Of a stretch of 36,911 nucleotides of DNA, positions 7,077-18,768 are shown piece by piece (positions within the stretch are counted from its first letter, which is position 1; each line of letters opens with the position of its first letter). Source of the DNA: a virus. Its lineage: Duplodnaviria; Heunggongvirae; Uroviricota; Caudoviricetes. Position numbers and translations under genes: made by a program. The stretch lies in the IMG/VR virus record IMGVR_UViG_2531839667_000007. The stretch is one strand, 5' to 3'. A model generated the notes under the pieces. The model searched no databases and was not told where the DNA came from. It was given only the letters and a program-made list of their open reading frames with translations.

Positions 7077-7252
7077 TGCTGCGGGTGCTTGAGGCTATCT
7101 GTCTCAGGCATGAACACCAAAAGGCAGATAGAGAAAAGCCCCAGTTAACATTACGCGTCCGGCAAGACGCTTAACATTAATCTGAGGCCATATCTATGCT
7201 CTACACACGTAGGTTAGCCTCTTACGTGCCGAAAGGCAAGGAGAAGCAGGCT

Positions 7253-7408
7253 ATGAAGCAGCAAAAGGCGATGCTTATCGCCCTGATCGTCATCTGTTTA
7301 ACCGTCATTGTGACGGCACTGGTAACGAGGAAAGACCTCTGCGAGGTACGACTCCGAACCGGCCAGACGGAGGTCGCTGTCTTCACAGCTTACGAACCTG
7401 AGGAGTAA
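7253..7408 (+). CDS. hok: Hok/Gef family type I toxin (51 aa)
   Basis: MKQQKAMLIALIVICLTVIVTALVTRKDLCEVRLRTGQTEVAVFTAYEPEE aligns with plasmid R1 Hok along its length; strong SD AAGGCAAGGAGAAG; in-frame upstream ATG at 7196. Confidence 0.8.
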   Translation: MKQQKAMLIALIVICLTVIVTALVTRKDLCEVRLRTGQTEVAVFTAYEPEE

Positions 7409-16137: not shown

Positions 16138-16344
16138 ATGGAAAAAATCACAACGGGTGTGTCATACACCACGTCAGCGGTGGGGACGGGATACTGGTTA
16201 CTGCAGCTGCTGGACAAAGTCTCTCCGTCCCAGTGGGTGGCGATAGGTGTGCTGGGGAGTCTGCTGTTTGGCCTGCTGACGTATCTGACTAACCTGTATT
16301 TCAAAATCAGAGAGGACCGTCGTAAGGTGGCGCGGGGAGAGTAG
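16138..16344 (+). CDS. S: holin, phage 21 S-like class II pinholin (68 aa)
   Basis: [33 protein letters not shown]...[20 protein letters not shown] resembles S21 pinholin as recalled; GGAGA SD. Confidence 0.8.
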
Positions 16345-16599: not shown

Positions 16600-16914
16600 C
16601 TACCTGAGCTTTGGTGATAGTAAGTTGAAAATTCGCATTTTTTGCTGACATGCGTAACGAGAATCCCATAAGCAGGGAGGACTTAATTCTTCATTAACCC
16701 ATGCGTTGATATTATGTTTCAGCCGTTGAAGCATCAGCGGTGTTAATGTTGTGGTAATAATATCCAGCGTTTTATGTGAGATCTTACCGTAAGGGTCTGC
16801 AAGAATGCTGCTTGTTGCTTCGTTATTATCTGCCATCAGAAGAAGTAACTCTGATTTAACGTTTTCTGTCATTAGTTGTAAAAATCTTCTGCGCAAACTT
16901 TCTTTACTGTTCAT
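16600..16914 (-). CDS. hypothetical ORF antisense to the lysis operon, between holin and endolysin
   Basis: Track ORF (104 aa) in an AT-rich insert; no convincing SD at any candidate start; may be non-coding. Confidence 0.25.
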   Translation of the reverse strand: MNSKESLRRRFLQLMTENVKSELLLLMADNNEATSSILADPYGKISHKTLDIITTTLTPLMLQRLKHNINAWVNEELSPPCLWDSRYACQQKMRIFNLLSPKLR

Positions 16915-17031: not shown

Positions 17032-17565
17032 ATGAACGAAAAAATAAAATACGGCCTGTCGGCTGCCGTTCTGGCGCTGATTGGTGCAGGTGCTTCTGCG
17101 CCTGAAATCCTCGACCAGTTTCTGGATGAAAAGGAAGGTAACCACACCATGGCATACCGTGATGGTGCGGGGATCTGGACCATCTGCCGTGGTGCCATTC
17201 TGGTGGATGGTAAGCCTGTTATTCCTGGCATGAAGCTGTCAAAGGAAAAATGCGACCGGGTTAATGCCATCGAACGTGACAAGGCGCTGGCATGGGTGGA
17301 GAAAAACATCAAAGTGCCGCTGACCGAACCCCAGAAAGCGGGGATCGCGTCATTCTGTCCGTACAACATTGGCCCCGGTAAGTGCTTCCCGTCGACGTTT
17401 TATAAACGAATTAATGCAGGCGATCGAAAAGGTGCCTGTGAGGCGATTCGCTGGTGGATTAAGGACGGTGGCAGAGACTGCCGTATTCGTTCAAACAACT
17501 GTTACGGTCAGGTATCCCGTCGTGACCAGGAGAGCGCGCTGGCGTGCTGGGGTATCGACAGATAA
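17032..17565 (+). CDS. R: SAR endolysin (T4-lysozyme-like, phage 21 R-type)
   Basis: 177 aa; Gly/Ala-rich hydrophobic N-terminus GLSAAVLALIGAGASAP; E-x8-D-x5-T catalytic spacing in EGNHTMAYRDGAGIWT. Confidence 0.85.
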   Translation: MNEKIKYGLSAAVLALIGAGASAPEILDQFLDEKEGNHTMAYRDGAGIWTICRGAILVDGKPVIPGMKLSKEKCDRVNAIERDKALAWVEKNIKVPLTEPQKAGIASFCPYNIGPGKCFPSTFYKRINAGDRKGACEAIRWWIKDGGRDCRIRSNNCYGQVSRRDQESALACWGIDR

Positions 17566-17655
17566 GCAGAATATTTTGCTGAAAAATAAGGCATGGCCAC
17601 GCGGGCGGATAACACGAAATCCTGCGAACTGGCGAAACGTAAGTGAATAAAAGTA

Positions 17656-17696
17656 AAAACCCCGTTTGTTGGCACCAAGCGGGGTTTTGTGTTTCT
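17656..17696 (+). terminator. terminator-like hairpin between endolysin and Rz
   Basis: ACCCCGTTTG / CAAGCGGGGT stem with one mismatch, then TTTTGTGTTT; A-rich upstream. Confidence 0.4.
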
Positions 17697-17721
17697 GACC
17701 TTGAGTAAGGCAAGGGAGAAC

Positions 17722-17904
17722 ATGGCGAAGTATAAACGAATTCTGTTGAGGTTGACCATGAAAAACGGCCTTGAACTGAAAGCGCCTGTAACTGATGACA
17801 TCAGCAGAGCACTGGCTTTTGCCATTAAGTGGGTGGCGGTCGGTGTTGCTGTGTCCCCGATGCTGTATGGGCTGGCAAAACTGGTCATTGCGTTGAAATC
17901 GTGA
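17722..17904 (+). CDS. small predicted membrane protein (60 aa, [11 protein letters not shown]...)
   Basis: Internal ATG of track ORF 17689..17904, AAGGGAGA SD; hydrophobic C-terminal half. Confidence 0.4.
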
Positions 17905-17918
17905 AGGGAGGATTAAGC

Positions 17919-18050
17919 ATGTCAGACAAACTCATAACGCTGGCGAAGATCCTCTGTGTAATTGTCGGCATTTCATTTTCACTAATGCTGGTTGCTCTTT
18001 TTCTTTCCATGGCCTGGATGATGTTGTCTTCGTCGGGGTTGCTGGGGTGA
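17919..18050 (+). CDS. small hydrophobic peptide (43 aa, [43 protein letters not shown])
   Basis: Internal ATG of track ORF 17829..18050, GAAGGGAGG SD at 7 nt; single predicted TM helix. Confidence 0.35.
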
Positions 18051-18061
18051 ACATAAACCGA

Positions 18062-18520
18062 ATGCTTTCCGCGTTTATCGTTATTCTGCTGGTGGCCTGT
18101 GGTGCGCTGTGGATGGCAACAGACCATTACCGTGATAACGCGATTACCTACAAAGCGCAGCGCGATAACAAAGCCAGTGAACTGAAGCTGGCGAACGCAA
18201 CCATTACTGATATGCAGGTGCGCCAGCGCGATGTTGCTGCGCTCGATGCAAAATACTCGAGGGAATTAGCCGATGCGAGAGCTGAAAATGAAACTCTTCG
18301 CGCTGACGTTGCCGCTGGTCGTAAGCGCCTGCGGATCAACGCCACCTGTCCAGGCTCCGTGCGTGAAGCCCCCACCACCTCCGGCGTGGATAATGCAACC
18401 GGCCCCCGACTGGCAGACACCGCTGAACGGGATTATTTCATCCTCAGAGAACGGTTGATGACAATGCAGAAGCAGGTGGGAGGGGCGCAGGAATATATCC
18501 GCACTCAGTGTATTAACTAG
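18062..18520 (+). CDS. Rz: Rz i-spanin (alternative GTG start 18047)
   Basis: N-terminal TM then [32 protein letters not shown]... closely matching lambda Rz. Confidence 0.85.
18288..18458 (+). CDS. Rz1: Rz1 o-spanin lipoprotein, embedded in the +1 frame of Rz
   Basis: [17 protein letters not shown] has lipobox LVVSAC; proline-rich PPPPPAW; wholly inside Rz. Confidence 0.75.
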
Positions 18521-18543: not shown

Positions 18544-18768
18544 ATGAAGAAATTACAGGTAACCGTAAAGCCTCTTCAGGGAACAATTCTGTTCCGTATT
18601 TTGCAGCGTGGTCGTGTTCTTGTTGAAGGTTCGTTCAGTGGTAAATGTATGCAATTACACTCCCGGACCTTTCAGGTGAATGCCACGAATGAAGAGCTAA
18701 CCGTTGAGTGTACGATGAATACCGCTAAATGCCGCATGGTATCCGCTGCATTACAGCCAGTGTGTTGA
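18544..18768 (+). CDS. hypothetical late protein (74 aa from MKKLQV)
   Basis: Internal ATG of track ORF 18526..18768 with GGAGA SD at 6 nt; not Bor-like. Confidence 0.45.
   Translation: MKKLQVTVKPLQGTILFRILQRGRVLVEGSFSGKCMQLHSRTFQVNATNEELTVECTMNTAKCRMVSAALQPVC

Follow-up and report, generated by a model that had tools for sequence, protein, structure and literature searches.

What occupies the gap between the endolysin gene and Rz in this Escherichia coli prophage, and does it belong to the pinholin-type lysis system encoded beside it? The question is raised by the IMG/VR virus record IMGVR_UViG_2531839667_000007 (Caudoviricetes), a DNA of 36 911 nucleotides (nt) that was analysed at its full length and is referred to below as the window. 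An interval at 17566–18061, consisting mainly of a terminator-like hairpin and two small open reading frames (ORF1 and ORF2), separates the gene for a signal-arrest-release (SAR) endolysin from the gene for the i-spanin Rz. This interval is an accessory cassette inserted between the two genes; it is common and has not previously been characterised. Judged from the conservation of their sequences, ORF1 and ORF2 are genuine, separately translated genes for inner-membrane proteins with one helix each, and ORF1 together with the hairpin is a portable unit that recurs at several late-region junctions of temperate Enterobacterales phages. The features on which this account is based are as follows (aa, amino acids).

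17656–17688, both strands: stem-loop of a two-way intrinsic-terminator-like hairpin, with a T-run continuing to 17696 and an A-run upstream (terminator scan and folding)
17697–17721, plus strand: leader containing the ORF1 Shine–Dalgarno sequence AAGGGAGAA (17712–17720)
17722–17904, plus strand: ORF1, a 60-aa small membrane protein with a basic N-terminal helix followed by one transmembrane helix
17919–18050, plus strand: ORF2, a small membrane protein of 43 aa whose single helix is very hydrophobic (phrog_4906)

Coding status of ORF1 and ORF2

A preliminary description, made from the DNA sequence alone, had placed two small ORFs with strong Shine–Dalgarno sequences at these positions, ending at the start of Rz, and had taken both products to be single-transmembrane peptides; both points were borne out. 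The Shine–Dalgarno sequence of ORF2, AGGGAGGA, is located at 17905–17912, 7 nt before the ATG. Kyte–Doolittle means calculated over 19-residue windows reached maxima of 1.88 at residues 38–56 of ORF1 and 2.89 at residues 11–29 of ORF2, corresponding to one hydrophobic helix in each. The AlphaFold2 model of ORF1 consisted of helices at residues 2–15 and 22–59, with a predicted local distance difference test score (pLDDT) of ∼90 over residues 31–60.

Both ORFs were matched over their full length by protein families in PHROG: residues 1–60 of ORF1 by phrog_1115 (E = 2.6e-42) and residues 1–43 of ORF2 by phrog_4906 (E = 2.1e-23). The families to which the two were assigned by hidden Markov models (PHROG 1115, 4493, 3246 and 4906) are all without functional annotation. 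Comparison of ORF1 with its Salmonella homologues gave proportions of synonymous differences (pS) of 0.42–0.57 and of nonsynonymous differences (pN) of 0.10–0.19, with a ratio of nonsynonymous to synonymous rates (dN/dS) of 0.13–0.21; the variable sites were distributed 14/3/35 over the three codon positions, a clear third-position bias. For ORF2, comparison with the 65%-identical ORF2-like gene of locus L097 gave a dN/dS of 0.23–0.25; it is under weaker constraint than ORF1 and its C-terminal third is variable. Because purifying selection was found in both and both were matched in PHROG, they were accepted as real genes. The possibility left open by the preliminary description, that the ORFs would prove not to be conserved and the interval a non-coding spacer, did not hold. 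A 126-aa ORF on the minus strand (17508–17888) was rejected as spurious, since the substitutions follow the plus-strand frames.

A profile search with ORF1 returned 234 relatives from six genera of Enterobacterales, every one annotated as hypothetical, and the 129 relatives of ORF2 were all from E. coli, nearly all of ∼43 aa and with a conserved sequence motif. Among 1.84 billion representative proteins the ORF1 family formed 17 clusters at 50% identity; larger relatives were sought there, and none of the 17 clusters carried an added domain. Scanning of genome representatives with an alignment of ORF1 sequences gave no confirmed locus.

The start of ORF1 allows several products. Translation from an upstream GTG would give 71 aa, and a possible internal start at Met13 (17758), preceded by its own GAGG, would give 48 aa and was chosen by many gene callers even where Met1 was intact. 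An RNA switch around Met13 was considered and rejected: a stem-loop hiding its Shine–Dalgarno sequence was predicted, but with z = −0.3 it was no better than shuffled sequences. The leader is nearly identical in Salmonella and in a cassette of the GH108 type described below. In Salmonella loci (L087:2960–3010, and also L088–L094) a 25-nt insertion creates an eight-codon upstream ORF (MCREVCSL), the TGA of which overlaps the GTG start of ORF1 in a coupling layout like that of mok/hok.

Gene calls of 80–83 aa in E. coli genomes (P0090, P0092, P0093, P0095 and P0097) were found to be fusions of ORF2 with the ORF1 core, formed at several different frameshift junctions and encoding two-helix proteins. 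They may be a hint that the two peptides work together, or may reflect simple decay.

Of 5426 complete E. coli genomes, 990 carried at least 80% of the interval and 2121 carried part of it; in O104:H4 2011C-3493 it was found at 99.2% identity. Its annotation is invariably a pair of hypothetical proteins (WP_001151823.1 and WP_001280932.1), and the cassette is carried by the viable phages PhiR5 and PhiR12, which plate on K-12 and E. coli C. No library searched gave a functional annotation for either ORF, and searches of Pfam, NCBIfam and PADLOC returned nothing beyond a sub-threshold match of ORF2 to DUF3930. Literature searches by RefSeq accession and by the peptide, hairpin and leader sequences found no paper naming them, and neither peptide was present in the Sakai small-gene ribosome-profiling supplements. 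The Pas small RNAs were rejected as a match: they are encoded 5′ of the holin gene or within structural operons, and the supplement does not contain the interval sequence.

Terminator-like hairpin

The stem-loop and T-run noted in the preliminary description at 17656–17696 were confirmed by the terminator scan, which gave a G+C-rich stem of 13 pairs, six of them G–C, and a loop of 7 nt, followed by GTGTTTCTGA. With RNAfold the hairpin folded on both strands, at −19.5 kcal/mol (z = −2.6) on the plus strand and −16.0 kcal/mol (z = −2.5) on the minus strand. The tail after the stem is T-rich on the plus strand and contains U5 on the minus strand, so that a G+C-rich stem-loop is directly followed by a U-run, as in an intrinsic terminator; because an A-run lies 5′ and a T-run 3′ of the stem, the element looks like a terminator in both directions.

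Eleven sequence variants of the hairpin from five genera all folded (−18.5 to −22.6 kcal/mol on the plus strand and −14.2 to −23.4 kcal/mol on the minus strand). Compensatory changes, counted from the individual folds of the variants, were found in the inner and outermost pairs, two pairs being changed on both sides; the structure has been kept while the sequence changed. In Lys8385Vzw an unrelated hairpin occupies the same place. Taken together, these features make the hairpin intrinsic-terminator-like, and it looks functional on both strands.

A variable slot before Rz

The preliminary description had noted that lambda has no genes at this place, and the two ORFs are absent where the endolysin gene and Rz adjoin: in the Qin prophage of K-12, rrrQ and rzpQ overlap by 4 nt and no interval is present. 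The interval was identified as an insertion because it is absent from Qin and because the same slot holds an antirepressor or methyltransferase gene in other phages. In Shiga toxin (Stx) phages the slot was found to contain an ORF2 homologue together with genes for an antirepressor and another small hydrophobic peptide, in CP-1639 the hairpin and yet another small peptide gene, and in one IMG/VR locus a DNA methyltransferase gene between ORF2 and Rz. The cassette is thus present in some phages and absent from the same junction in close relatives, which is the distribution of a moron.

ORF1 paralogues and ORF2 also form variable tandem arrays directly before Rz. One such array comprises ORF1, ORF2, a second ORF1 core of 40 aa and a 28-aa peptide ending in IRWW, which is itself a recognisable ORF1 paralogue.

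Recurrence of the hairpin and ORF1

In Salmonella the unit of hairpin and ORF1 lies just before Rz, and the gene upstream encodes a lysozyme (PF00959, of the SAR type or other), a GH19 endolysin or, in one case, an antirepressor; the cassette with the GH19 endolysin is paired with a holin of the lambda S type. It was further found in the following contexts.

E. coli: behind a GH108 endolysin gene with Phage_holin_8 and holin_3_7; downstream come an ORF2-like gene and a gene for a 60-aa lipoprotein
E. coli, Stx2k phage: behind an M15 endolysin gene
Salmonella and E. coli: after tail-fibre assembly genes
Klebsiella and Serratia: inside myovirus baseplate clusters
Enterobacter: flanked by the genes for the tail tube and the tail chaperone
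Yersinia enterocolitica: an ORF1-like gene kept alongside Rz in a chromosomal remnant, in more than 1600 assembly-collection blocks

A homologous or equivalent strong hairpin was located 30–110 nt 5′ of the ORF1-like gene in all of these contexts. The family members behind GH19 and GH108 endolysins are 79–88% identical, and a hybrid behind the M15 endolysin is 50% identical. None of these GH19, GH108 and M15 endolysins has an N-terminal hydrophobic segment, and the other holin families found alongside ORF1 homologues were PF05106, PF16080 and PF16931/PF05449.

In the E. coli cassettes with GH108 and M15 endolysins (L097:2831–2986 and L107:1655–1837) the 60-aa lipoprotein follows the ORF1-like peptide, the stop of which overlaps the lipoprotein start, and no recognisable Rz was found. 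With its lipobox LVGC and ∼29 aa in the mature part, the lipoprotein is roughly the size of a colicin-release lipoprotein and could be the outer-membrane disruptor of these phages. The Y. enterocolitica prophage remnant (L109–L113:3001–3601) contains only a 49-aa ORF1-like gene and an intact Rz, beside a hydrolase gene. After a tail-fibre assembly gene in L118 and L119 (2860–3330 in each), the ORF1-like gene has the same pair of hairpins on either side, as a direct repeat, which suggests that recombination at terminator hairpins serves to insert or exchange the cassette.

Expression and proposed role

In none of the contexts examined did the promoter scan give a plus-strand sigma-70-like site in the gap from the hairpin to ORF1; the only plus-strand promoter hit in the scanned loci was upstream of the hairpin. 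In the window only ∼25 nt lie between the hairpin and the ORF1 start codon. A plus-strand promoter built on a conserved TTGACT was rejected, inspection of the alignment having given no usable conserved −10 hexamer. Because no plus-strand promoter was found and the gap is this short, transcription of ORF1 and ORF2 probably depends entirely on read-through of the hairpin by late, Q-antiterminated RNA polymerase. Their timing would then be the same as that of the endolysin and the spanins. ORF2 may in addition be translationally coupled to Rz, since an alternative GTG start of Rz (18047) overlaps the ORF2 stop as GTGA; the ATG annotated in RefSeq (18062) is 12 nt beyond.

Once inserted into the inner membrane at a late stage of infection, the peptides would alter when, or how efficiently, the envelope breaks down, whatever the type of holin or endolysin. 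The interpretation that we tentatively prefer, and for which we would claim somewhat less than an even chance, is that ORF1 and ORF2 encode late-expressed accessory inner-membrane modulators of the lysis phase and are neither core lysis genes nor antiholins specific to a pinholin. It is consistent with the position of the unit in five kinds of lysis cassette, in each of which it comes after the endolysin gene and before the gene for the outer-membrane step, either Rz or a small lipoprotein, and with the Y. enterocolitica remnant, in which the ORF1-like gene and Rz have been kept together.

A partial parallel is provided by the releasin gp25 of phage Mu (DUF2730), a membrane-tethered helper of SAR endolysins with an N-terminal helix, the family of which also occurs in phages with cytoplasmic endolysins (PMC9239132). 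ORF1 shares with it the small size, the membrane tether, a short cytoplasmic portion and a gene located in a lysis cassette; it differs in its C-terminal helix and its length of 60 aa, and it gave no match to DUF2730 in Pfam at E ≤ 1.

Several observations weigh against a role in lysis. Neither ORF showed similarity to the holin, antiholin or releasin families of Pfam and NCBIfam at E ≤ 1, and ORF2 was frameshifted or otherwise disrupted in ∼8 of a set comprising 82 E. coli loci and the window. The unit is also found with no lysis gene nearby, at the tail-fibre end and in baseplate and tail-tube clusters, so that a role tied to lysis proteins is not required. Expression by read-through is hard to reconcile with a strong terminator before the gene in myovirus tail clusters, where Q-type antitermination is assumed to be absent. 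Finally, an arms-race function such as exclusion would account for the tandem, diversifying paralogues no less well than the tuning of lysis would.

Alternative explanations

Two other readings, each of which we consider unlikely, deserve to be set out in full. According to the first, the cassette would resemble a type I toxin–antitoxin system: ORF1 would be a small membrane toxin, one of the roles named in the preliminary description, with a ribosome-binding site hidden by a cis-antisense RNA of ∼75 nt transcribed from a minus-strand promoter within ORF1 codons 3–13, the hairpin would serve mainly as the terminator of this RNA, and ORF1 would be made once late transcripts outnumber it. The two features concerned are as follows.

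17729–17758, minus strand: candidate sigma-70 promoter within ORF1 codons 3–13 (TGGTCA, 18 nt, TATACT)
17645–17722, minus strand: hypothetical cis-antisense RNA of ∼75 nt, predicted to cover the ORF1 Shine–Dalgarno sequence and start codon and to end at the hairpin

The candidate promoter was found as T(A/G)GTCA, 18 nt, TATA(C/A)T at the same codons, the hexamers being kept in 12 of 14 divergent loci. It was called independently in the window, Klebsiella, Enterobacter and Salmonella, with 9–10 of 12 matches, and was the sole minus-strand hit in each 700-nt region scanned. It falls in a block of 48 nt, the first ∼16 codons of ORF1, that is identical between E. coli and Salmonella, the synonymous divergence downstream being ∼0.55. 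Among the eight closest loci synonymous changes are mostly in the spacer; the single one in a hexamer, at codon 12 (ACC/ACT), switches the −35 hexamer between TGGTCA and TAGTCA, and the substitution K3N converts TATACT to the consensus TATAAT in four loci examined. In the minus sense a hairpin is 30–110 nt downstream of the site in every context, with its extended A-tract as the U-run, and the predicted RNA folds into two hairpins (−21.5 kcal/mol, z = −2.9).

The geometry resembles that of symE/SymR and hok/mok/sok: a hydrophobic peptide of 48–60 aa with one helix, a candidate antisense RNA that overlaps the ribosome-binding site, in Salmonella a coupled upstream ORF with its stop overlapping the ORF1 start, a location on mobile elements and, elsewhere in the window, a match to sok. 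The locus differs from such systems in that the stretch from the hairpin to ORF1 gave no toxin promoter, no Rfam or Pfam family of these systems was matched and the genes lie inside a late operon. No Rfam family reached its gathering threshold in the interval, and a permissive scan gave only a chance-level rimP leader on the minus strand (E = 0.063). The −35 hexamer is weak, with four of six matches in most loci. The conserved bases also encode the conserved KYK and LTM and form the Shine–Dalgarno and start region of Met13, and coding constraint together with the dual start is an equally good explanation of their conservation. Extra copies of the ORF1 core, as in L037, have no region that would encode the antisense RNA. 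That the hairpin and ORF1 form an undescribed type I toxin–antitoxin-like mini-cassette of the late regions of temperate Enterobacterales phages is regarded as unlikely; if it were so, the antisense RNA could act as a threshold device, holding back ORF1, and possibly the coupled ORF2 and Rz, while late transcripts are still scarce.

According to the second reading, which is about as improbable, the cassette would be cargo of benefit to the lysogen, its inner-membrane peptides blocking the DNA entry or lysis of other phages or altering the host envelope, and it would be found before Rz only because the slot tolerates cargo. The antirepressor and methyltransferase genes carried in the same slot, the movement of the unit between unrelated late-gene junctions, the tandem diversifying paralogues and variable ORF2 C-terminus, the narrow host range and the patchy presence all point in this direction. 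A classical lambdoid moron is inserted between late genes with its own promoter upstream and a terminator downstream (Hendrix and colleagues). The cassette resembles one in being absent from close relatives, bounded by a terminator, placed between late genes and exchanged between unrelated contexts; it differs in that its terminator is upstream, no plus-strand promoter was found and the only promoter-like site is on the opposite strand, terminators on both sides being found only in the tail-fibre context (L118 and L119). A plus-strand promoter between hairpin and ORF was found in none of the contexts, so that expression in the lysogen would be unexplained. No PADLOC defence model matched either ORF at E ≤ 1. 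The G+C contents of ORF1 and ORF2 (0.49 and 0.46) are close to those of the neighbouring genes (0.53 and 0.55), and base composition gives no sign of a foreign origin.

It is very improbable that the ORFs encode antiholin-like regulators or lysis inhibitors dedicated to the pinholin and SAR endolysin, as the preliminary description had suggested. In the window they do sit between an S21-type pinholin (PF04971) with its SAR endolysin and Rz, and the closest architectural parallel is the lyz–lydD–lydE operon of phage P1, a late operon with small membrane-protein genes immediately downstream of the SAR endolysin gene; LydD, which has two transmembrane helices, has been proved to be a pinholin, and the function of lydE is not known (PMC9025707). 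ORF1 and ORF2, however, have one helix each and no similarity to LydD, a pinholin is already encoded in the window, and ORF1 is also found with endolysins that lack an N-terminal hydrophobic segment. With a single hydrophobic helix each, the products do not have the two transmembrane helices of class II holins and pinholins; they are not dual-start antiholins of the S107 or S21-71 kind either, being encoded by separate genes ∼1.4 kb downstream of the holin gene. The occurrence of the ORF1 family behind the GH19, GH108 and M15 endolysins, together with other holin families, and in tail modules, as well as the lack of any DUF2730 or holin-family match, argues against dedication to this pair. Of the earlier proposal, the presence of extra small membrane proteins in the lysis cassette stands, and the tie to the pinholin and SAR endolysin does not; the cassette is not supported by its distribution as a pinholin-specific regulator.

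That the ORFs are spurious or decaying, with function confined to the terminator and spacer or to upstream ORFs that deliver ribosomes to Rz, is scarcely credible, as the disruption of ORF2 in some loci and the overlap of its stop with a possible Rz start codon are outweighed by purifying selection in both ORFs, the third-position bias of ORF1, conservation of the peptide sequence across six genera and the persistence of ORF1 where Rz is absent.

Surrounding lysis region

The window is an E. coli lambdoid prophage. Before its lysis region Rfam gave matches to DicF, sok, three tRNAs and STnc100, and a terminator-like hairpin lies directly 5′ of the holin gene (these features together at 1455–1506, 7083–7258, 11503–11749, 11829–12018 and 16057–16083); lambda-like packaging, head and tail genes lie downstream of the lysis region. 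The remaining features of the lysis region are as follows.

16138–16344: S21-type class II holin (pinholin; PF04971)
16600–16914, minus strand: 104-aa ORF between the holin and endolysin genes (phrog_1853, unknown function; E = 3.5e-47)
17032–17565, plus strand: SAR-type endolysin (lysozyme; PF00959, E = 1.1e-23) with the hydrophobic N-terminus MNEKIKYGLSAAVLALIGAGASAP
17566–17655, plus strand: conserved non-coding stretch 3′ of the endolysin gene that aligns with its Salmonella counterpart; small hairpin GGAUAACACGAAAUCC at 17607–17622
18062–18520, plus strand: Rz i-spanin (PF03245, E = 1.3e-48) from the ATG, with an alternative GTG at 18047
18273–18458: Rz1, embedded in Rz (PF06085, E = 1e-21)

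A 90-aa hypothetical protein is annotated in RefSeq at the position of the minus-strand ORF. A 74-aa ORF right after Rz (18544–18768; phrog_2571, unknown function) has the position of bor in lambda. In the alignment of the non-coding stretch, CGGATAACACRAAATCC is nearly invariant and a 1-nt indel leaves no conserved reading frame. In Salmonella the CGGATAACACRAAATCC small hairpin is preceded on the plus strand by a promoter-like site (TTGTCA, 16 nt, AAAAAT), so that the stretch could represent a small RNA of ∼100 nt that terminates at the main hairpin.

Biological significance

Prophage lysis cassettes with ORF1 and ORF2, or with their close relatives, are present in roughly one to two of every five complete E. 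coli genomes, Stx phages and O104:H4 included. A tempting mis-annotation is corrected by these results, in that the two genes are not tied to the pinholin and SAR endolysin mechanism. Should the genes tune lysis, phage release and the release of Shiga toxin would be affected; should the antisense RNA exist, the cassette would represent a new toxin–antitoxin-like family and a new way to time late genes.

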